A DNA stretch of 64,000 nt, from positions 62,808,001 to 62,872,000 of the forward strand of contig CM059432.1 in NCBI GenBank assembly GCA_030390025.1, in the 5' to 3' direction. Below the pieces are notes generated by a model. That model was not told the DNA's origin. It saw nothing but the letters and a program-made list of their open reading frames with translations, and made no database searches. The translations under genes were made by a program, and so were the position numbers. This DNA comes from Squalus acanthias (Eukaryota). Shown here piece after piece: positions 29,503-64,000 of the stretch. The first letter of the stretch is position 1; each line of letters starts with the position of its first letter.

Positions 29503-32500
29503 TCTCTTGGTAATCAAAGTAATGAAGGTCAAATCCAAAAGTACCTGCAAAGTGATGCTCAGTAGCCAAAACTACTTCACACAGCGTTGACTCTATGCAG
29601 TAGTCTCTCCTTCTCTCTCTCAGAATCTCTCTCTCTGTCAGAATGAGTGGTGCAAAAATGTCTACCACAGAAAAAGCCAGGAAGAGGCCGCCTTTAAATA
29701 GCGCCCCCCCAGCCCCACACCGACTGGGAAACGTTCCAGTCTACCTGTCGTTGCTTGCGCCAGGCGGAAAGGAGGGGGGCGCCACTCAATATCCGGTCCG
29801 GGGCGCCACAAGGGCGTTGCAGGCTCGACTGACATCAAGATCTGCGGGCGCAGGAGATCGGGGCAGTATTGTTTAGCGCCATCGCAAAATGTCTGGTCAA
29901 TTTCGCGAGCGGCGCAGACATCGCTGCGCCCGGGCGCTAGTTGCTTTGCGCCCCATTAGCGCCCTCTTAAGGCGCTAACGGGAGGCGCAAACCAACCGAA
30001 TTTTTCCCCCAGAATGTTTAAAAATAAGAGTGCAACAGAAAATGGGGCCAAAACAAGGAGGGATGGTAAAAAGACAAAGTTAAAAGCTCTATATCTGAAT
30101 GCATGTAGCATTCGTAACAAGATAGATGAGTTGACGACACAAATAGATACAAATAGGTGTGATCTGATCGCCATTACAGAGACGTGGTTGCAAGGCAACC
30201 AGGGCTGGGAACTGAATATTCCAGGGTATTTGACGATTCGGAAGGATAGACAGAAAGGAAAGGGAGGTACGGTGGCTTTGTTGGTAAAGGATGGGATCAG
30301 TGCAGTGGTGAGAAGCGATATTGGCTCAGAAGATCAAGATGTAGAATCGGTTTGGGTGGAGATAAAAAATAATAAAGGGAAAAAGTCTCTGGTGGGCGTA
30401 GTCTACAGGCCCCCGAACAGTAGCAATACTGTTGGACAGAGTATAAATCAACAAATAATGGAGGCCTGTAAAAAGGTACGGTAATAATCATGGGTAATTT
30501 CAATCTCCATATTGATTGGACAAATCAAATTGGCCATGGTAGCCTTGAGGAGGAGTTGATAGAGTGCATCCGGGATGGTTTCCTGGAACAGTATGTAATG
30601 GAACCAACCAGGGAGCAGGCTATCTTGGATCTGGTACTATGTAATGAGACAGAATTAATAAATGATCTCACAGTAAAGGATCCTCTAGGAAAGAGTGATT
30701 ATAGCATGGTTGAATTTCAAATTCAGTTGAAGGGTGAGAAAGTTGTATCTCAAACCAGTGTCCTGATCTTAAACAAAGGGAATTACAGTGGCATGAGGGC
30801 AGAACTGGCTAAAGTGAACTGGAAAAATAAATTAAAGGGTAAGACAGTTGAAATGCAGTGGCGGATATTTAAGGAGATATTTCATAACTCTCAACAAAAA
30901 TATATTCCAGTGAGAAAGAAAGATTTTAAGAGAAGTGAGCACCATCCGTGGCTAACTAAGGAAGTAAAAGATGGTATCAAATTGAAAACGAAGGCAAACA
31001 ATGTTGCCAAGTTTGGTGGGAGACCAGAGGATTGGGAAATTTTTAAAAACCAGAAAAGGATGACTAAAAAAATAATAAAGCGAGAGAAGATGAATTATGA
31101 GAGTAAACTGGCAAGAAACATTAAAACAGATAGTAAGAGCTTCTACAGGTGTATAAAAAGGAAAAGGGTAGCTAAAGTAAACGTTGGTCCCTTAGAGGAT
31201 GAGACTGGGGAATTAATAATGGGGAACGGGAAAATGGCAGAGACGCTGAACAAATATTTTGTATCTGTCTTCAAGGTAGCAGACACTAACAACATCCCAA
31301 TAATGGATAATCAAGGGGCCACAGGGAGGGGGGAACTAAAGACAATCACTATCACTAAGGTTCCCCTTTATCTACCCTGCTAGCTACATCTTCAAACCCG
31401 ATTCCCTTTCATAAAACCATGTTGACTCTGCCGAATCATATTATGATTTTCTAAATGCCCTGTTACCACTTCCTTCATAATGGATTCCAGCATTTTCCCG
31501 TCAACTGTTGTCAGGCTAACTGGCCTGTGGTTCCCTGTTTTCTCTCTCCCTCCTTTCTTGAATAGCGGGTTAAATTTGCTACCTTCCAATCCGCTGGGAC
31601 CGTTCTAGAATCTAGGGAATTTTGGAAGATCACAACCAATGCATCCACTATCTCTGCAGCCACCTCTTTTAGAATCATAGGATGTAGACCATCAGGTCGA
31701 GGGGATTTGTCAGCTTTTAGTCCCATTAGTTTCTCAAGTAAAAAGACATCAGGGCTCGTCCGTGATTCAAAGGGAATGCAGACAAACTTTTGAGAGTGAA
31801 TATTTATCTACATGGGTGGGTCATTGGGGATTGTGTCACCCAGTCACTGTGGTCTCAGAGAGCTTGCTTGATCACCTTTGGGATTGGAGAGGAATTTTTT
31901 TGAGATTTTTTCCTAAATTGGCCTATGAATATTTTCTCCTTTCTTTCCCTCTCCCAAGATATTGCATTACAGCGTGGAAGTAACACCAGGTTGGGATGGG
32001 ACAGGCTTGATGGACCAGTTGGTCTTTTCCTGTTACCATTTCCCACACTATCCATTTCACAGAAGTGGTTTTGTGCTATGGCTTCATTTTGCCTATAAAC
32101 TTGGTTGAAAGTGCCCAAGCTCATGCCACATAGTAACCTTAAACCAACTGGCAGCGGGGAGTTTCATCCAGTCAGTCGGGAATGGATTCGAACTCCGATC
32201 ATAGATATAAAATTACAACATGTTATCTCACTGCTCTACCCAGGCTGCTGTGTTATCTATTTTGTCCCCACAGTCTTTCCTGCGAATAGTAGACTGGCAT
32301 CTTTAATTTCCAGTGTTATTGCTGGGCCTGTTTGTAAAGTTCAGCCAGATTATCACAGCTGGATACAGGCTGAAAAAGATACTGCAGACATTGGACCTGG
32401 ATCTGGAGAGAGACCTTGGTAAATTACGTGGACAGTGAGAGAAGGGCATGGACCGAGATGGGACATAAATCTGCAATGGACTAGTTACTCCCCATCAGAG

Positions 32501-50332: not shown

Positions 50333-51313
50333 TCAAAATATACATGGCTGGTGGTTGGAATTATTGGTGCCTTGCTCAGGCGAGTACTGCAGGGCTCCTC
50401 CGGAATGGTCCAGACAGCGGAACCGTTGTTTCAGCACGCCGATTGTGCGCTCAATAATGTTCCTGGTTGCTTGATGGCTTTCATTGTACCGCAGCTCAGC
50501 AGGGGTGTTTGGCGTACGGAGCGGTGTCATCAGCCAGGTGCTCAATGCGTACCCCTTGTCCCCCAGAAGCCAACCAACTGGCTGATGCGGTGCCTCGAAA
50601 ACTTCTGCCACAGTAGTCTGGCGCAGGATGAAAGCATCGTGGCAGCTGCCCGGATAGTGGGCATTGACAGCGAGTATCACCTGTCTGTGGTCACAGACCA
50701 ACTGCACATTCAAGGAATGGAACCCCTTTCTGTTCCTGAATTCCTCTGCATTCTCTCGCGGAGCACGCAAAGCCACATGCGTGCAGTCAATGGCGCCCTG
50801 CACCATGGGGAAGCCCGCTACCCTCGCAAAGCCCAGAGCACGGTCACGCTGCTTATCTGGGGTCATAGGGAAAGAGATGAAGTCTCGTCTCCTTCTGAAG
50901 AGGGCATTGGTGACCTGCCGGATGCAGCGATGCACCGCAAACTGGGAGATATTGGCGAGGTCCCCAACAGCAGCTTGGAATGAGCCAGTGGCGTAGAAGT
51001 TCAAAGCCACTGTGACCTTCACTGCCACCGACAGAGACGTCCTGGACCTCAGCTGAGGCTGCAGATCTGGCTGCAGCAGGTGGCAGAGCTCAGTGACCAC
51101 CTCCTTGCTGAATCGCAGCCTTCGCAAACACAGCTCCTCGGACATATGGATGTAGGAGAGCTGTTCACGATATACCCTGGGAGGGTAAGCTCTCCTGTAC
51201 ATGCGCCTGATGGCCCTCCTCCGTCTGGCCATCATTGCCACTCTCTGTCTGCGTCTCAGTATCCTCTGATTCAGCTGGAGCAGGACGACGCCCCCAATCA
51301 TTGCAGCCCCCAT
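50333..51313 (-). CDS. Harbinger DDE transposase (326 aa; native C-terminus deleted)
   Basis: Uninterrupted ORF with IDCTH, GDKGY and IERTIGVLKQRF. Lacks the CCMLHN and acidic tail seen in the other two copies. Confidence 0.95.
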   Translation of the reverse strand: MGAAMIGGVVLLQLNQRILRRRQRVAMMARRRRAIRRMYRRAYPPRVYREQLSYIHMSEELCLRRLRFSKEVVTELCHLLQPDLQPQLRSRTSLSVAVKVTVALNFYATGSFQAAVGDLANISQFAVHRCIRQVTNALFRRRRDFISFPMTPDKQRDRALGFARVAGFPMVQGAIDCTHVALRAPRENAEEFRNRKGFHSLNVQLVCDHRQVILAVNAHYPGSCHDAFILRQTTVAEVFEAPHQPVGWLLGDKGYALSTWLMTPLRTPNTPAELRYNESHQATRNIIERTIGVLKQRFRCLDHSGGALQYSPEQGTNNSNHQPCIF

Positions 51314-52347
51314 ATTCTCTTCGCCAGAAAAGTAATGAGGTACAGCAACTAAAGTAGCAACAAAGTTAGGATGAACTAGGCAAAACTACCTCACAAAGCG
51401 TTGAGTCAATGTAGAAGTCTCTCTCTCTCTCTCTCCGAATCTCTCTCTCTCTCTCAGAACGAGTGGTGCATAAATGTCGACCACAGAAAAAGACACGAAG
51501 AGGCCCCCTTTAAATAGCGCCCCCCCCAGCCCCACACCGATTGATAACGTTCCAGTCTTCCGGTCGTTGGAAGCGCCAGGCGGTAAGGCAGGGGGCGCCA
51601 CTCAATTTCCGCTCCGGGGCGCCCCAAGGGCGTTGCACCATGGAATGACGTCACAATCTGCGCGCGCAGGTGGTCGCAGCGGTAAGTTTTAGCGCCGCCG
51701 CACAATCTCAAGTTAAGTTCTCGAGCGGCGCAAACAGCGCTGCGCCCGGGCGTTAGCGGCTTAACGCCCCATTAGCGCCCTCTTAAGGCGCTAACGGGAG
51801 GCGCAACCAAGTGAATTTTTACCCCCTAATATTTAGGTTCTTTGGGGGAGAAATTCAGTATCATAGTGCCTCCAGTTAGCACCTGGCGGGGGCGCTAACG
51901 GGGCGCTGAGGCAGTAGCACCACGGCGAGGCGAATCCAGTGACGCATGTCAAATCCAGCCCCCCCATAATGCCGCCACTACAAGTTAGCACCGGGGACTT
52001 CAACGCCAGGCAGATCGTGACGTCAGTGAATGTGCAATGCTCACTGGGCGCCCGATCTGCAAAATTCATTGTCGCCTCCTGCCTTAGCACCTCGCCCTGA
52101 CAGCTACAGGGAGAGGAGGTGTAAAGCAGTCGGTAGACGGCTCCAGGGGCGCTACTTAAAGGGATCATAAGTAATGAGTCACAGCTCTCAGGTTAGTGCT
52201 GTTTCACTGCTTCCTTGTCAGTTTGACATTGTGCAACAGTTTAATTCAGTCATTTAAAGGTTGATTAGTCTCCGGAGTGTTGTGGCTACTAAAAATTAGT
52301 TATATTTATTCTCACAACATATCAAAGTGCTACACTTGGTTACATTA

Positions 52348-53659: not shown

Positions 53660-56600
53660 CTATTCACCCTTGTGTAATCCCTTAGTGCCTCTCGTTACTG
53701 TGCCTTTGCCTACTCTAGTGTTCCTATGGAACAGTTCCTGCAGATTGGAGGGTGGCAAATGTAACCCCACTATTTAAAAAAGGAGGGAGAGCGAAAACGG
53801 GGAACTACAGACAGGTTAGCCTGACAACAGTAGTAGGGAAAATGCTAGAGTCTATTATAAAGGATGTGATAACAGGACACTTAGAAAATATCAATGGGAT
53901 TAGACAAAGTCAACATGGATTTATGAAAGGGAAATCGTGCTTGACAAACCTACTGGAGTTTTCTGAGGATGTAACTGGTAGAATAGATAAGGGAGAACCA
54001 GTGGATGTGGTGTAGTTGGATTTTCAGAAGGCCTTTGATAAAGTCCCACATAAGAGGTTAGTGTGCAAAATTAAAGCACATGGGATTGGGGGTAATATAC
54101 TGGCATGGATTGAAAATTGGTTAACAGACAGGAAACAGAGAGTAGGAATAAATGGGTCTTTTTCGGGGTGGCAAGCGGTGACTAGTGGGGTACCGCAGGG
54201 ATCAGTGCTTGGGCCTCAGCTATTCACAATATACATCAATGATTTGGATGAGGGAACCAAATGTAATATTTCCAAGTTTGCTGATGACATGAAACTAGGT
54301 GGGATTGTGAGTTGTGAGGAGGATGCAAAGAGGCTTCAAGGCGATTTAGACAAGTTGAGTGAGTGGGCAAATACATGGCAGATGCAGTATAACGTGGATA
54401 AATGTGAAGTTATCCACTTCGGTAGAAAAAACAGAAAGGCAGAGTATTATTTAAATGGTGATAGATTGGGAAATGTCCTTGTACACCAGTCACTGAAAGT
54501 AAACATGCAGGTGCAGCAAGCAGTTAGGAAGGCAAATGGTATGTTGGCCTTCATTGCAAGAGGATTTGAGTACAGGAGCAAGGATGTCTTACCACAGTTG
54601 TACAGGGCCTTGGTGAGACCACACCTGGAGTACTGTGTGCAGTTTTGGTCTCCTTACCTAAGAAAGGATATACTTGCCATAGAGGGAGTGCAGCGAAGGT
54701 TCACCAGACTGTTTCCTGGGATGGCAGGACTGTCGTATGAGGAGAGATTGGGTCGACTAGGCCTGTATTCACTAGAGTTTAGAAGAATGAGAGGGGATCT
54801 CATTGAAATGCATAAAATTCTGACAGGGCTAGACAGACTGGATGCAGAGAGGATGTTTCCCCTGGCTGGGGGGTCTAGAACAAGGGGTCACAGTCTCAGG
54901 ATACGGGGTAGGACATTTAGGACTGAGATGAGGAGAAATTTTTTCACTCAGAGGGTGATGAACCTGTGGAATTCTCTACCACAGAAGGCTGTGGAGGCCA
55001 AGTCACTGAATATATTTAAGAAGGAGATAGATTTCTAGACACAAAAGGCATCAAGGGGTATGGGGAGAGAGTGGGAATATGGTATTGAGATAGAGGATCA
55101 GCCATGATCATATTGAATGGCGGAGCAGGCTCGAAGGGTCGAATGGCCTATTCCTGCTCCTACTTTTCTATGTTTCTATGTTTCTATGAAGTATTGGCCC
55201 AGTGGCTGCAGCAGGGCTGGTGGAAGGCTGCTGAATGTCCATGTGGGAGGCTTCAGATGGCCTTGCAGGATGCCCTCAACCAGCTCTGGGCCTGGAAGGC
55301 CCAGCTGTAGACTGCACCACCTCAGCATGGGTGGCAGCAGTCTGGGATGGCTGGATGACAGGCAGCGACAAGGGCAATGGCGGAGTGGCAGTGGTGGGAG
55401 CAGGAATGTTGTCATCCTGAGAGAGGACAGCAGGTTCCTGCTCCACTGACCAACTGCCACTCCCCCGAGGCAGCACCTCAGCATCCCTAGTAATCTGTTG
55501 CAGCACAGATTGCTGGCCTGCTGCGACACCGTGAAAGCCCCTGTCAACGGTGGTGGACCCACCCATGATGGCAGCAGTCAGAGCTTGTGTTTCATCAAGC
55601 TGAGACTGCATGAGAGCCTCTGAGATTGGATGCCACCAAGCCTAGACTGCATTACAGCACTAAAACGTTGCGTTGCTTCTGCCTGTGCTGCAATGGAAGC
55701 TGCCAGATCGCCCATCACACGTGGCATCAGGTCTGGGTTGTCACGGTCTATCTGGGAGTCCACTATCCTTTCCAGACTGGAAATGATGGGCTCCATGATG
55801 TGCACAGAGTCTTGTGCAATGTTGGAGGCGGACTCCTCCATGCTCCTTATCATTGCCGACAGGCTCTCAGGCACCTTGCCATTGCACCTATCATCTCCGT
55901 GTGCATGCCCATCGCCCTTCTTCAAAGGCCTCCCCATCAAGGTCTTCATCTGAGTCCTGTGCAGCAGAACTCGCACGTGAAGTCGCCCTCCAGGGAGCTG
56001 GCCCCTGTGCTACCCTTTCCCCCTGGCGTTGTTGCAGCCCGCTCGTTCCCTGGTGCCTCACCCTGTGCAGATCCCACTACTACACTAGCCTCTAAAGAAC
56101 GCGTAGTGCCAATATCTGAGCTGGTGCCTGCGGGTGAGACATGCAGTGACGCGATGTGTTCTTCCTCCTCCTCTTCTCCCGCCTTGCTCTCAATGGTGCC
56201 CTCAGGGACAGGCTGCTCGGGTGCTTGCTCATTATCTGAAGGTATAAAGGCACAAGAGTTGGGTTAAGTTGAGGGGGGTGGTGGCAGAAGGGAGAAATGC
56301 AGGCATACAGCATGATTAGCTGGAAAGTATGAAAGGCTTGTGGGATGAGGGGGAAGTGGGATGTGAGAAGAAGGAGTAGGGATGAACATACCGACGTTGT
56401 CATCAAGGGGGTCAACGTCGCCGGTGGCCACGGTGCCCACCACCTGGCACCCGATAATCACCAGCACTCTATTTTCCAGCACAGACAGTGGTTGGGTGTC
56501 GGCTTGTCCCCCGTCTGTGTGCTCCTGCTCCCTCCTGTTGTGAGCCACCTTGGCCTGCAAGAGAAAGGAAAGTGTCTGAGTGAGTGTGGAGCAATGTGTT

Positions 56601-57504: not shown

Positions 57505-58596
57505 ATGGCAGTGCACTTCAGTCCCATCAAATGCACATCCTGTGCCATGTGGGAAGTCCAGGATGCTTCTCGTGCCCTGGACAACCACATGTGCAGGAAG
57601 TGTCGTCAGCTGGAGGAGCTCGAACTTTGGGTTTTGGAGCTTGAGCAGTGGCTGGCATCACTGCAGTGTATCCGCAAGGCTGAGAGCTCTGTGGATAGCA
57701 CGTTTTAGGAGGTGGTCACCCCACAACTTAAGAGTTTGCAGGCAGAGGGGGAATGGGTGATCGCCAGACAGACAAGGAGGACCAGGCAGGTAGTGCAGGA
57801 GTTCCCTGAGTGCATTTCGCTCTCTAACCAGTATTCGGTGAGGGTGATGGTTCCTCAGGGGAGTATAGGCAGAACCAAGGCCATGGCACCATGGTGGCTT
57901 AGCTGTACGGAGGGAAGGAGGAAGGTCAGAAAAGCAATAGTGATAGGGGATTCAATAGTTAGGGGAACAGACAGGCGTTTCTGCGGCCGCAGACGTGACT
58001 CTAGAATGGTATGTTGCCTCCCTGGTGCCAGGATCAAGGATGTCACTGAGTGGCTGCAGGACATTTTGAGGGGGGGTGGGGTGGGGGGTTGCTAGTACTG
58101 TTGAGGAGGCTTTAAACTAGCTTGGCAGGGGGATGAAAACATGAGCATAGATTTAGAAGGGAGAGAAGCAAAGTTGGAAATGGAAGGCAGAAAATTAGTA
58201 AGTGATTTTGGAAGGCAACGGAAACAAAGGCTAGAAAATAGACAACAAAGGGGGTTGGAAGTGCTTCATGGTATATACTTCAATGCAAGGTGTCTAGTGA
58301 ATAAGGCAGATGAGCTGAGGGCACAGATAGACACGTGGAAGCATGATATCATAGCTATTACTGAAACATGGCTGAAAGAAGGGCAGGAATGGCAGCTCAA
58401 CATTCCTGGTTACAGGATTTTCAGATGAGATAAAGAGGGGGATTAAAAAGGAGGGGAGTTACAATATTGGTTAAAGAAACAATTACAGCTGTGAGGAGGG
58501 ATGATATGTTAGAAGGATCATCAAATGAGGCCATATGGGTTGAACTGAAGAACAAAAAGCGGCAATCACAGTGTACTATAGACCCCCAAATAGTCA
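57505..58596 (+). mobile_element. CR1 LINE 5' part (ORF1 zinc finger/esterase, ORF2 start), decayed
   Basis: CTSCAMW..CRKC, IVIGDSIVRG..CCLPGARIKDV, YFNARCLVNK..IAITETWL. Confidence 0.9.
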
Positions 58597-58995
58597 AAAA
58601 GAAAGAAAGTCTTGCATTTATATAGCGCCTTTCACGCCCACCGGACGTCTCAAAGCGCTTTACAGCCAATGAAGTACTTTTGAACTGGAGTCACTGTTGT
58701 AATATGGGAAACGCAGCAGCCAATGTTGGTTGAGGGAAAAATACTGGCCAGGACACCGGGGATAACTCCCCTACTCTTCTTCGAAATTGTGCCATGGGAT
58801 TTTTTACGTCTACCTGAGAGAGCAGACGGGGCCTCGGTTTAACATCTCATCCAAAAGACGGCACCTCCGACAGTGCAGCACTCCCTCAGCACTGCACTGG
58901 AGTGTCAGCCTAGCTTTATGTGCGCAGGTCCCTGGAGTGGGACTTGAACCCACAACCTTCTGACTCAGTGTGCTACCAACTGAGCCACAGCTGAG
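58597..58995 (-). mobile_element. tRNA-derived DeuSINE (SacSINE1-like), near full length
   Basis: Minus strand has A box TGGCTCAGTTGG and B box GGTTCAAGTCC, a central Deu-like domain and an L2-like tail. Confidence 0.8.
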
Positions 58996-59003
58996 ATAGA
59001 AGA

Positions 59004-60638
59004 TGTAAAGTTTCGCAATTATCGCGATTCAAAATAACATAAGAGAAGCAGATTCGTTTGATCAGTTTTATTAAACGAAATGCTGTCCTGATAATAAATG
59101 ACACAGAAGCCTATAACATGGCCGCCGCGCATCGTGGCAGAAGCTTCCAGAAACACAGTGGGCAGACAAGATGGCGTCGAATATACATTCAGTATAAGAT
59201 TGGATCATACTCGGTAAACACTGATAAAGACAGGATGCAACCTGTTTGCATTTGGAACAATAGCAAAGATATAAGTGCTGGAATCGTTTTCCTATGCACA
59301 GTAAGGATCATTGTACTGGGCAATCGAAGGCCCATCCAGACACATCAATACACAAATACCCCCCCGGCTCTACAATGAGAGAGACATTGGCGGGTGATTA
59401 AGTCGGTATTCGGGGGGCCCCAAAACCAGTCGAGGAGACGATTCATACACATCCTGGCTGGTCCAACAATGAGGAAAACATTAACGGATAGTTGGCCAGT
59501 TTCAGGTGCTACCGAAACCCGTTAAAGAAGATAATCGCCCCATGCTGGGAGTTTTGAGCGCCAAATATTACACAAAGGACAAACATTAAGATTTGAGCGG
59601 GAGATAAGCGGACACATCACTATAACTATAGAGAACAAATGTCCATCGCGCTCTTATTCTCTTATTCGCTTGCCTCTTCATGAACTCGCTTGACTTGTGG
59701 GCTCTTGATTTTCTCTCTGGACTTTATTGACTCTTGACTCTTAGCCGTACTGGTCGGTTATTCGAGTGTTGGGTGGAGCTCAATCGGTACGAGCCGCCCC
59801 GACAAGGGCAAGTAACAGGGTACACCATCCCAAGTGTCGGTAAACGGTGTCTGGACCCGGAGGCCCGAGGAGACGAGACGAGAAGAAGACGAGAAGAAGA
59901 CGAGAAGAAATTCCATGTGCCGCCACGGTCAGTAAACCCCGACCACACCCGAAAATATAAATACAGGACTCTTCTTTGAGTTCTACCGACTACAACCTGT
60001 GTCGAACACAGGAAGACTCTTCTTTGAATTTTATCCGAGTTCCGTCGAGTTCTTCATGACAACAGGGAGTCTGGCCTGCTTTTCGCAGCAGCGAAAGTAA
60101 ACAAGTGGGGTGCAGAGACCCTTCCAAACACGTGACAGTCAGGCGCTGCAGCGAAACGAGCTGAGTGCCTCACTTTAAAATCTCCGAAGTAACACGAGTG
60201 GTGAGCATGTTTTACGATCCTACAAATCTAGATGTAGTGTAGGTAGTGTTAAGGGAGGGTGGTTTTTAATAAGGTTAAGGTATAATGTGTTCCCCTTTCT
60301 ACGATGTGCTGTGTGTTCTCCATTTCCATAGACCAAGCTTTATGAATGTATGTATACTTGTACTCTCTTTGATTTGCGCCTATGACATGTATTTCATGAT
60401 TTTAGACGCCATACAATAAAGATTTCCATTTCGTACTATTCAACCGGGTCTATTTGAGTTTTTCTCTGCATTACTGCTCCCTGCATCTAAGTCCAGTGTT
60501 AGAACCGTAAGGGCGAGTGGGTCGAACCACTCACAGGTGCTTATTGCAAAAAGGCTGGCCGGAGACCAGAGCAAGCAATAGTATAGGCAACGAAGGCCTA
60601 ACCTCGCACCAGCAACGTCTGAGATACGCCCCCTTACA
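59004..60638 (+). repeat. 5' LTR (~1635 bp) of a retrovirus-like element
   Basis: TGTAAAG...CCTTACA termini, AATAAA at 60415, followed by a TGG-initiated PBS. The 3' LTR is outside the window, so the left end is inferred. Confidence 0.75.
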
Positions 60639-60643
60639 GAAAA

Positions 60644-60653
60644 TGGCGACCAC
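60644..60653 (+). promoter_or_regulatory. Primer binding site, possibly tRNA-Arg
   Basis: TGGCGACCAC, 5 nt after the LTR end. tRNA identity is from memory of tRNA-Arg(TCG) 3' ends and is unverified. Confidence 0.6.
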
Positions 60654-60706
60654 ATTGGCAGCAAGAGAGTAATGTTTTAGACCCTGGTTTGAATAGGCGA
60701 AATGTG

Positions 60707-62446
60707 ATGGATGAGAAGGTAGCCGACTATGTGTTTGGGAAAGTTAACTTAACCAAAAGGTGGATATGTGACCTACTGATGGATAGGCGTCCGCTAGACG
60801 CCGCCATCAAATGGACAGGTAGTAAAGATCATAAGAAGTCGGTAGAGAAAGCGGTCTGGCTGATGTGCTACAAGAAGCAAGTCCAACTTTCGGACCAGGT
60901 TATTGCAGCACAGGCAGCTCAGATCAGGGAATTGGAAGTTGAGATGGAGGAAAAGGTCACGGGAGGACAGAAACTCATTGCATCATTGAATGCGTTACAT
61001 CAGGAACGCCAAATAGTAGCCAACCACCATGAGGCAAAGATTGATTACCTAGAATGTCAGGTCACGGAAGCAAAATTAAACGAGGGAAGGATTAGAGAAC
61101 GGTGTATCCGCCTAGCTAACCAGATAAAAGCCCAGGAAGAAAGCTTGAGGGGAGTTAGGGCGGCATACAAGATGGCCCTCGAGGATAGGCATGAGGGAGC
61201 CGACCACAGTGTTTGCCAGAGGGAGATAGAGAACCTAAGGGAGTCCCTGAATAAGGCAAACGGCTTGGTGTGTCTCATCAGCCCGTCAGCGAGCCAGCCA
61301 CAGGTGGGTAGGGAATTCCCAAAATCCCTACCGGAAAAAGCAGAAGTGGTATCTGCCACTATGCCCTCCGCGCCACCCAGCTATTCGGCAACCTGGGTAA
61401 GGGAGAAAGTGGTGGAGGTTCCCGAGGTAGGACAATCCCCGGAGGTAGTGTCGAGAGCGGGACCGATGTGTCCGCTCCGAGGTCACAAGAGAGGCCCGAA
61501 TGGGGACAATGGGGCAGACGGGGATATCCTGAACCAACTTATATTGCCCCACAGCTCACACCAGCTGAGAGCAATGATTAGCCATGTACGGAAGCTGTCC
61601 GAGTCAGAAGACCCTTCCGTACATTTTAGAGAAGTAGAACAGACCGCAGCAATTAATGGCTGCGACGACGAGGAAAAGACCAAAATGTTGCTGTTCTCTT
61701 TAGATAGCTCGATCCTTCAGTGTCTCTCCGACGAGAGCAAGAAGGGAAATAAAACCTATGGGGAGTTACGGGACGAGGTCCTAGAAGTGTTAGGGGCGGA
61801 TGACGAAGGTCCGTTCGTCAGATTGGGTCAGACCGTACAGATGGAGGGAGAATCCCCGCGGGTTTTCGCCGACAGACTGTGGCCAGTATACCAGCGTAGC
61901 TGCCCAGGTGCGCCACAGCGCATCTATCTGGACGGCACCGGGAAAGCTCATTGGCTCAGGTGCATGGTAGCCAACAGCTTGCCAGCCGTCAGAGAGCAGA
62001 CCAGAGCGTGGTTTGATCCCAGTAACCCCGCCACAACGGAGGAGTCTGTCCTGAATCGACTCACCATAGGGTATCGGAACACTAGGAGCACGGGAGCGTG
62101 TCCCCTTAAGGGAAAGGTGCATGAGGCAAAGCCCGCAGCTCCGGCTCAGAAAAAGTGGCATCAGGAGGGAAATCGCGCCCCACAAACCAGTGGTGTTTGT
62201 TACGGGTGCGGGAAGACAGGTCACTGGCATAAAAACTGCAGGAATCCCTGGAAGGACTCCAGGGACAAAGCTCCCGCAGTCCGAACCCAAGCGCCTGTCT
62301 CTGAGAAAGGAGCTGGTGTGCCTATCCATCCCGATGCGATAGAATCAATGTTAGGAGCCATGCGGTCTCTTATGATTTCGCACGGGAAAGTGGCAGTCGT
62401 TACCGGCCCCACAGATGCCACAACCCCGTCCACCGGTACCCAATGA
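60707..62446 (+). CDS. gag: Gag polyprotein (coiled-coil N-terminus, PSAPPSY, capsid-like region, CCHC knuckle)
   Basis: Intact ~580-aa ORF; CYGCGKTGHWHKNC at 62198-62239; lies between the PBS and the protease. Confidence 0.92.
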   Translation: MDEKVADYVFGKVNLTKRWICDLLMDRRPLDAAIKWTGSKDHKKSVEKAVWLMCYKKQVQLSDQVIAAQAAQIRELEVEMEEKVTGGQKLIASLNALHQERQIVANHHEAKIDYLECQVTEAKLNEGRIRERCIRLANQIKAQEESLRGVRAAYKMALEDRHEGADHSVCQREIENLRESLNKANGLVCLISPSASQPQVGREFPKSLPEKAEVVSATMPSAPPSYSATWVREKVVEVPEVGQSPEVVSRAGPMCPLRGHKRGPNGDNGADGDILNQLILPHSSHQLRAMISHVRKLSESEDPSVHFREVEQTAAINGCDDEEKTKMLLFSLDSSILQCLSDESKKGNKTYGELRDEVLEVLGADDEGPFVRLGQTVQMEGESPRVFADRLWPVYQRSCPGAPQRIYLDGTGKAHWLRCMVANSLPAVREQTRAWFDPSNPATTEESVLNRLTIGYRNTRSTGACPLKGKVHEAKPAAPAQKKWHQEGNRAPQTSGVCYGCGKTGHWHKNCRNPWKDSRDKAPAVRTQAPVSEKGAGVPIHPDAIESMLGAMRSLMISHGKVAVVTGPTDATTPSTGTQ

Positions 62447-64000
62447 CTAAAGCCCGCGCAGCCCGTTTACCTGTGTCCGCTCAGCTATGATGCGTGGAAA
62501 AGACCCCTGGTAGAGATGGAGGTAGAGAAGCAGAAGGGTAGTTACTTGTTGGACATGGGAGCTTCATGCACCGTGATTCATACAGATAGCCCCTTTGATT
62601 CACCACTGTCTACCAAGGTCCCATTCACATTAGCGGGGTTCACGGGAAAAGAGCAGGCTGGCGCGTTCTCCATTCCGCTCTCCATTCATTTAGGAGCACT
62701 CCACACTACATGGAAGTGCATACTGATGAAATGGCAAGAGGGGGGTGGCAGAGGTATCCTCGGATCGGATCTCCTAGCGGAACACGGGATCCTCGTGGAC
62801 CTTAGGAATCACTGTCTCTGGGGAGCCAAGGGTGGGAAAGACAAGGTAGTTGTAATCCCAGGGAAGGAAGGAAAAGGGGCCCTGTGTACCATGAAGCCAT
62901 CCGGAGGTTACGACCTCGGGCTTATGGTCGCGGATGTCCCAACGGACATGCAAACGTACGTGTCAGATAATATGCACGCGTTTGCAACCCACAAGCACGA
63001 TTGTGGGAGGGTTACCGGGTTTGAGGTCAGCGTAGACGGGGACCCCATGACCCGGCCCCAAAAGCAGTATAACTTCCCCAAAGAAGCAGAACCCGACATG
63101 GAGACAGCAATGTCCTCATTGGTGCAGCAGGGCGTGTTGAGACCGATAGCCACACACGTGAACTCCCCATTATGGCCGGTAAGGAAGCCGGATAATTCGT
63201 GGAGGGCCACGGTGGACTACAGAGTCCTTAACAGTAACATCCCCGCCTGCGCGCCCACAGTAGCAGCAGTTGCTGACCTAATAGGGAGTATCCCAGCGTC
63301 CGCGACCACGTTCACGGTGCTGGATATCTCGAACGGTTTTTGGTCCATCCCGCTGCGGCGAGAGGACCAGTACAAGTTTGCCTTTACTTTTAAAGGACAA
63401 CAGTACACGTGGAACTGTCTGCCACAGGGTTTCCACAACAGCCCCAGTATTTTCCATCAGTGTATGGCAGGAAGTTTAAAGGAGTTTAGTCAGCCCAATC
63501 AGATAGTGCAGTACGTGGATGATTTGCTCCTGTTCACAGACTCAAGGGAGGAGCATGGACCACTGTTAGCCGCGTTATTGGAGCTGCTAGCGAGAAAGGG
63601 TTTTAAAGTTAACCCTAAGAAAGCACGGATCGGTCAGCAGGAATTAAAATTCCTGGGCCTGACCATTCGCGCTGGGGAAAGAGCCATAGATAAGGCTAGG
63701 AGGGAGTCGGTGCAGGAGTTACCGATTCCCAACACCATAACGGGTGTGAGGTCCTTTCTGGGACTGACCGGTTACTGTAGAGACTTCATCGAGGACTATG
63801 CGGCCACAGCAGCTCCGCTGCTCCGACTCCTCCATAAGGGAGTGGAGTGGTCTTGGGACGAGGGTTGTCAGGCAGCATTCGAGAAGTTAAAAAGGGATCT
63901 GCAGACCGCGCCAGCTTTAGGGGCCATAGATGGGGGGGAGGAGTTTTTCCTGGAGGTAGCTGCCAGCGGAGACAGCTTGAGCGCTGTGCTGCTCCAAGAG
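62447..64000 (+). CDS. pol: Pol (protease, reverse transcriptase, start of RNase H-like tether), partial; in frame with gag
   Basis: Hand translation is open to the window end: LLDMGAS, GILGSDLL, RPQKQY, NSPLWPVRKPD, LDISNGFW, LPQGFHNSP, QYVDD (YVDD 63512-63523), FLGLTGYCR. Confidence 0.95.

Follow-up and report, generated by a model that had tools for sequence, protein, structure and literature searches.

A UGA-CUA(G) stop at the gag-pol junction of a shark retroviral element as a candidate read-through signal

The element and its gag-pol junction

We analysed a 64,000-nucleotide stretch of Squalus acanthias DNA (GenBank assembly GCA_030390025.1, contig CM059432.1, positions 62,808,001 to 62,872,000 of the forward strand), henceforth referred to as the window, which ends within a retroviral element carrying gag and the first part of pol. 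An initial annotation had described the boundary of these two genes as one in-frame CAA-TGA-CTA stop, with pol continuing in the gag frame without overlap, and this is borne out by the sequence and by the reading of its open reading frames (ORFs). Specifically, gag runs from ATG 60707 to TGA 62446 (579 amino acids, C-terminus ...TGTQ*), the junction consists of CAA (62441-62443), TGA (62444-62446), CTA (62447-62449) and A (62450), and the pol frame, which is the gag frame, then continues for 518 codons without a stop to the end of the window (LKPAQPVYLCP...LLDMG...). This TGA is the sole stop of the gag/pol frame within 62200-62800, where the other two frames carry 12 and 6. Such a context seldom arises by chance: TGA-CTA accounts for 23, and TGA-CTAG for a single one, of the 5702 stop triplets counted over the two strands of the window. 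The features of the coding region are as follows (the Gag coiled coil was judged by eye; P0123 and P0124 are Gag relatives, P0003 and P0005 Pol relatives, and SnRV is a retrovirus of similar layout, all described below).

60707-62446, plus strand: gag ORF of 579 amino acids with a coiled-coil-like N-terminal half, a capsid region, one CCHC knuckle, an 81-residue tail and a Gln-TGA end (ORF and Pfam; P0123 and P0124 cover 98-99%)
62198-62239, plus strand: single CX2CX4HX4C zinc knuckle, motif at Gag residue 498 (Pfam zf-CCHC, E 0.032, below cut-off)
62441-62450, plus strand: gag-pol junction CAA-TGA-CTA-A; sister-copy depth is mostly TGA-CTAG (sequence and public-run contigs)
62447-62515, plus strand: 23 codons from the stop to the first in-frame AUG, with L-C-x-L and R-P motifs kept as protein (5 of 6 listed differences synonymous; motifs common to SnRV)
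62495-62788, plus strand: aspartyl protease domain, with an atypical active-site motif, D-M-G, in the window copy (Pfam RVP, residues 17-114, E 0.0015, below the curated cut-off; 28% identity with the SnRV protease)
63179-63667, plus strand: reverse transcriptase (RT) core with QYVDD (Pfam RVT_1, E 7.5e-36; top solved-structure matches MLV and foamy RT)
63854-64000, plus strand: start of the RT connection (tether)/RNase H-like domain, truncated at the window end (Pfam RT_RNaseH_2, E 1.9e-8)

We also noted that motifs resembling x-C-P-L recur at domain borders, near 61460, 62095, 62470 and 62885 (GPMCPL, GACPL, YLCPL and ALCTM, respectively), where they could serve as sites of protease cleavage.

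Conservation of the stop and of the frame behind it

Sister copies were represented by contigs from 4 of 20 listed public runs, aligned on 62260-62680 at 80% likeness; these are short contigs rather than whole copies (344, 40, 7 and 227), drawn from four organisms (A, F, G and D) and four studies, and one run, X1, may come from the source species. Among the 40 of 73 difference rows listed for the four runs, none falls within 62436-62449. At position 62450, nearly all of the depth differs from the window copy and yields TGA-CTAG (69744 of 75625, 227 of 227, 11.7 of 11.7 and 17448 of 17571). The same segment persists in more diverged subfamilies, whose unrelated gag tails rejoin the element at 62436-62444 (4 contigs in X13, 3 in X17 and 2 in X11, among the 23 of 52 loose ends listed). 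One such subfamily carries TGA-CTAG in exact register with flanks matching at only 8 of 23 positions (one X11 contig, by eye), and two contigs of X1 show the last 13 letters of this diverged type (by eye).

Protein relatives end at the same place. In the Gag alignment, P0123 (60%) and P0124 (48%) terminate on Gln at the final column of the window Gag, and three of the four members of a skate cluster end on Gln at its stop column. Fused Gag-Pol was found neither among 1757 longer candidates (a weak test) nor among 33 further representatives checked for a protease motif. The initial annotation had named a sense codon in sister copies as the sign of a nonsense mutation in a fused gag-pol; none appears in the listed contig differences, the diverged subfamilies or the Gag relatives. 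Judging from these comparisons, the TGA is not a post-insertion mutation, and the stop together with CTA(G) is conserved. As a separate observation, contigs from runs of two organisms (X1 and X13) leave the element at 62478 for one common unrelated sequence, which might represent a derivative with an internal deletion.

The codons behind the stop bear the mark of translation. In the codons from the stop to the first in-frame AUG (62447-62515), 5 of 6 listed differences are synonymous against an expected fraction of 0.30 (P ~0.01, a rough value), compared with 15 of 19 over the remaining protease (0.3 expected) and 6 of 15 in the gag tail, where all counts refer to listed rows and the differences are not independent events. 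The AUG itself, at 62516, lies downstream of the R-P strand at the start of the protease domain. This synonymous excess argues for ribosomes reading past the stop rather than starting anew; on the same substitution pattern, pol is under purifying selection.

Read-through and its alternatives

Programmed UGA read-through is the best explanation for the synthesis of Gag-Pol, and we consider it very probable. On a single mRNA, gag and pro-pol would share one reading frame; at the UGA, the majority of ribosomes would terminate and release Gag, while a minority would decode it by a near-cognate tRNA and produce Gag-Pol, from which the protease would free itself by cutting a few residues past the stop. 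The near-cognate residues expected at UGA are Trp, Arg or Cys. The signal would reside mainly in the linear context (a Gln or Pro codon, UGA and CUA(G)), i.e., a type II signal, giving basal read-through without a 3' structure. Two features of the locus agree with this class: UGA is followed by CUA in the window copy and by CUAG in most of the sister depth, and an open, conserved frame lies behind the stop (518 codons, with the synonymous excess). Read-through itself, its rate, the inserted residue and its independence of structure are inferred. In published work, cited here and below from the portions of each paper available to us, UGA-CUA alone gave 1.5% read-through in HEK293T cells, and the motif is conserved across vertebrates, in AQP4 as far back as the ancestor shared with cartilaginous fishes (PMC4132726); UGACUA viruses need a 3' structure only conditionally (PMC13517186).

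Several points weigh against this interpretation. The basal read-through of UGA-CUA (1-2%) may fall below what a retrovirus needs (~5% in MuLV), and the gag-UGA-pol junction of Tca2 alone gave no read-through in yeast (PMC2194720, part of the text). Because the contig comparison covers 40 of 73 difference rows and 23 of 52 loose ends, minor sense-codon variants may exist beside the TGA; contigs also drop rare variants. Fused gag-pol forms do exist among distant relatives: in the coelacanth RefSeq model P0005 (43%), capsid continues into protease and Gln occupies the stop column (by eye), and the available part of the PMC7947760 supplement labels gag-pol as fused in 10 lokiretrovirus consensuses. 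Furthermore, the Gag of P0137 (36%) ends near, not on, the same residue. In P0005, the Gln is followed by Gly where SnRV has TAG-GGC, and this model could represent a fused copy or a mutated stop.

An alternative that is compatible with read-through, and which we regard as possible though doubtful, is that decoding requires an RNA structure located downstream or at long range, like those of MuLV or VEEV, which the decayed window copy no longer shows well, with CUA(G) forming only part of the signal. In three of the four runs, contig depth is highest directly 3' of the stop (62455-62499), which may be a sign of strong nucleotide conservation, although depth is not a copy number; in addition, the region behind the SnRV stop folds better than shuffled sequence (z down to -2.45 among 10 windows). 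In the window copy, by contrast, the fold of 62444-62600 is no better than that of shuffles (z -0.19) and a scan of 20 windows gave a best z of -1.15, both values referring to this copy with its private changes. Candidates for H-type pseudoknots are weak and at chance level (105 of 200 shuffles also yield one), Rfam returned no match, and the diverged subfamily alters the bases directly after CTAG. The stimulatory structure that the initial annotation had envisaged within 62447-62600 was thus not found on folding. Likewise, the type III signal of gammaretroviruses combines UAG-G with an 8-nucleotide spacer and an H-type pseudoknot, whereas the stop here is UGA and no structure exceeds chance.

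Pol could also be made without any read-through, either from a spliced or separately started mRNA in the style of foamy viruses, for which the AG at 62483-84, the AUG at 62516 or both would serve, or through a non-canonical bypass like that of Tca2. The AG is preceded by a pyrimidine-rich stretch, the AUG is in frame and in good context, P0003 also has Met at that column, and foamy RTs are among the top solved-structure matches. A start at 62516 would nevertheless lose the R-P strand, which is common to SnRV and lies within a Pfam match beginning at residue 17; the column holds Val or Cys in SnRV, P0005 and P0011; the codons from stop to AUG are under coding constraint; and a separate start would leave the conserved frame and CTAG unexplained. 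We therefore consider this route improbable. As for the TGA being a nonsense mutation in a fused gag-pol, acquired after insertion or in one master copy spread with a helper, a change from CGA to TGA is a common CpG change and counts in its favour, as do the other private changes of the window copy and the existence of the fused coelacanth model, yet it is scarcely credible against a stop common to runs of four organisms and to diverged subfamilies, Gag relatives at 46-60% identity that end at the same column, the lack of fused forms among the candidates and representatives surveyed, and a pol under apparent purifying selection.

Ribosomal frameshifting was rejected as a further candidate: pol lies in the gag frame, the other two frames are closed, and three upstream G-GGA-AAN heptamers lead nowhere. 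Selenocysteine insertion and A-to-I editing at the UGA were also weighed, with no indication of either.

Relatives of the element and known read-through systems

The closest Pol relative is P0003, at 83% identity, followed by frog and coelacanth proteins named 'NYNRIN-like' at 43-47%; the Gag relatives are P0123, a skate RefSeq model (Rhinoraja longicauda), at 59% and P0124 at 46%. The skate model, as the nearest named Gag, suggests a cartilaginous fish as host. Whereas the window itself ends in the tether, P0003 carries both PF17919 and PF00075. A careful tree of 24 Pol sequences places the RT with the retroviral RTs, split from four Gypsy-like rows at 100/100, and outside the gamma/epsilon clade (95/91), with the base of the tree poorly resolved and SnRV placed elsewhere at 90/89. 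A quick tree of 60 rows put it in an 11-row clade with SnRV (SH-aLRT 90) and outside the gamma/epsilon clade at 98. Both trees were built without foamy or loki rows, and the gamma/epsilon clade was labelled from hit names and Pfam domains. A robust joint clade with SnRV is thus not supported, as the grouping in the quick tree is absent from the careful one. In the solved-structure search with the RT, MLV and foamy RT rank above Ty3. A scan with the window Pol for related loci recovered nothing closer than distant Gypsy-like contigs (3 of 67 stretches) and none of 5 viral contigs.

Lokiretrovirus identity, first guessed from the 'NYNRIN-like' hit names, was dropped on the RT motifs: the element has PQGFHNSP and QYVDD, as do the SnRV and HERV-L rows, while loki rows have PFGY.NSP and YVDD without the preceding Q (two loki rows, by eye). 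Two other loki characters, a paramyxovirus-F-like env and a CGIN1-like integrase, concern regions past the end of the window. The SnRV-type traits of clade Huo are present, namely gag-stop-pol in one frame, a single knuckle and a coiled-coil Gag (the SnRV traits of this comparison are those given in part of PMC2717909). On these sequence characters we classify the element as a class III-like retrovirus with an SnRV-like layout, and not as a gamma/epsilonretrovirus, Gypsy element or lokiretrovirus.

The outer parts of the element and its surroundings are less clear. Two features lie upstream of gag:

59004-60638, plus strand: candidate 5' long terminal repeat (LTR), tentative (TG...CA ends and AATAAA near 60416, by eye)
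60644-60653, plus strand: primer-binding-site-like stretch TGGCGA... (sequence)

A second LTR copy is absent among the 20 repeat families listed for the window and the left LTR end is thus tentative; the positions of the 3' LTR and env lie beyond the window end. The primer-site-like stretch presumably resembles a tRNA-Arg site, over 10 nucleotides only. At 85-102 of the SnRV contig L004, a site likewise beginning with TGGCGA has only the first 6 nucleotides in common with it, and the window stretch gave no match at the SnRV site with 2 mismatches allowed. No tRNA genes were found in the window. The frame upstream of AUG 60707 (60623-60706) resembles an N-terminal extension of the skate Gag model (25 of 46 identical from residue 7); Gag in relatives may begin nearer the primer site, and the window copy seems damaged there. 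Overall, the window copy looks decayed and may be inactive (D-M-G protease motif, short primer-site match), and because of this the signal should be seen as a property of the family rather than as proof of an active locus.

Elsewhere in the window, a 350-codon ORF at 50333-51385 (minus strand), which resembles a Harbinger/PIF transposase, lies inside a unit present twice (25.6-29.9 kb and 47.9-51.7 kb, 79-91% identity). Segments 30472-31383, 54016-55038 and 57700-58600 are presumably CR1-like long interspersed element (LINE) pieces, together with a repeat resembling a short interspersed element (SINE). The SINE-like repeat stops just upstream of the candidate LTR.

Several known systems resemble the junction in part. 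SnRV, which we identified through the match of Pol P0015 of contig L004 to the SnRV RT row in the supplement alignment of PMC7947760, likewise reads gag and pol in a common frame interrupted by a single stop at the homologous position, and has one zinc knuckle and the RT motifs PQGF/QYVDD. RT identity is 41-46% and Gag identity only 20%, and the protease Asp lies 32 codons past the stop in SnRV and 36 in the window element. The SnRV junction, in contrast, reads CCA-TAG-GGC, which is type III-like, and precedes a folded 3' region (z -2.45), whereas the window element has UGA-CUA(G) and no detected structure. Suppression of the gag stop has been assumed for SnRV and Ovex1 (PMC2717909, available portion). 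Lineage I of the elephant shark CmiERV (scaffold 2; PMC4422223, available portion) has the RT motifs HKHDCGR, PACAP and LDISNGFWSIPL in common with the window element and was placed with SnRV by that paper's author; its junction, read by eye in the supplement, is an in-frame CAA-TGA-CAT-G rather than CTA(G), in an old decayed copy. The text of PMC4422223 makes no mention of a stop, gag or termination.

XtERV-S, a class III endogenous retrovirus (ERV), has an in-frame gag-TGA-pol for which read-through was proposed, as in the window element, and a bullfrog relative (Pyxicephalus copy) has the junction GAT-TGA-CTA-G (PMC8278194, supplement file 5, by eye). These frog elements differ in being ERV-L-like, without a zinc knuckle and with a dUTPase, an XtERV-S copy reads TGA-CAG-G, and the CUAG context is not mentioned in the available part of PMC8278194. 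The available part of the MuERV-L paper says nothing on the mode of pol expression. Among aquatic hosts, a UGA gag/pol junction occurs in SSSV (UGAAGA), ZFERV (UGACGA) and RMEV (UGAAGU), described as distant relatives of epsilonretroviruses, in contexts unlike that of the window (PMC13517186, part of the text).

Five lokiretrovirus consensuses carry the motif at the end of gag, four as TGA-CTAG-G (Ofa, Cne, Pyo and Sau) and one as TGA-CTA-A (Bsp), as read by eye in the PMC7947760 supplement; the protease frame was followed codon by codon in Ofa and the other four were assigned by the same peptide pattern. These five form one fish subgroup of the 24 consensuses, the others, including Dcl, Lro, Tfu and the 10 fused entries, being mostly unread at the junction. 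The string 'tgactag' occurs at 17 places in this supplement, and of the 16 listed 3 are junctions and 13 are not; Sau and Bsp were picked up in a subsequent search. The pol entries of the supplement start at downstream TTG or CTG codons. A word search of the main text of PMC7947760 found no mention of read-through. No lokiretroviruses were found in the 6 chondrichthyan genomes covered in that paper (PMC7947760, part of the text).

The type II signal of Sindbis virus, chikungunya virus and PSIV, and of the vertebrate genes AQP4, MAPK10, OPRK1, OPRL1 and MDH1, has an identical stop and +4 to +6(+7) context. Compared with these systems, the signal here would set the Gag:Gag-Pol ratio of a retrovirus. 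A 2026 review, in its available part, lists UGACUA among animal viruses for alphaviruses and PSIV alone and names no retrovirus with it, in a text without loki, ERV-L, shark or Xenopus (PMC13517186). Our literature search, which covered mostly titles in journals open without subscription, found no paper describing UGA-CUA(G) at a retroviral gag-pol junction.

Considering this, the initial annotation's proposal of UGA read-through gains from the conservation of the stop, but its view that this is unusual for a retrovirus does not hold: SnRV has an in-frame stop, and SSSV, ZFERV, RMEV and XtERV-S have UGA. Neither read-through nor UGA is new for retroviruses, while UGA-CUA(G) at a retroviral gag-pol junction appears to be. 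What is unusual is the UGA-CUA(G) context, a claim narrower than the original one and broader than the window element.

Retroviral read-through has been worked out almost solely for the MuLV UAG and its pseudoknot, and is described as unverified even for epsilonretroviruses in the available part of the 2026 review (PMC13517186). Retention of UGA-CUA(G) by a multicopy family whose subfamilies have diverged, together with the same motif in a frog ERV and five lokiretrovirus consensuses, would point to a second signal class in retroviruses, and the junction offers a short natural cassette that could be assayed in a reporter. Genome annotation is affected as well: a stop of this kind is readily mistaken for an inactivating mutation, after which pol is given an incorrect start further downstream, as happened with the pol entries of the lokiretrovirus supplement. 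As the five lokiretrovirus sequences represent one fish subgroup, the motif could equally well stem from common descent or from convergence on a leaky host context. A bolder hypothesis, which we think unlikely, is that structure-independent UGA-CUA(G) read-through is an old and widespread route to Pol at the base of retroviruses (the shark/skate family, frog class III ERVs and the loki subgroup), from which the UAG-pseudoknot and frameshift signals were derived later. If this were true, vertebrate cellular genes with the motif would have a decoding route in common with these viruses.

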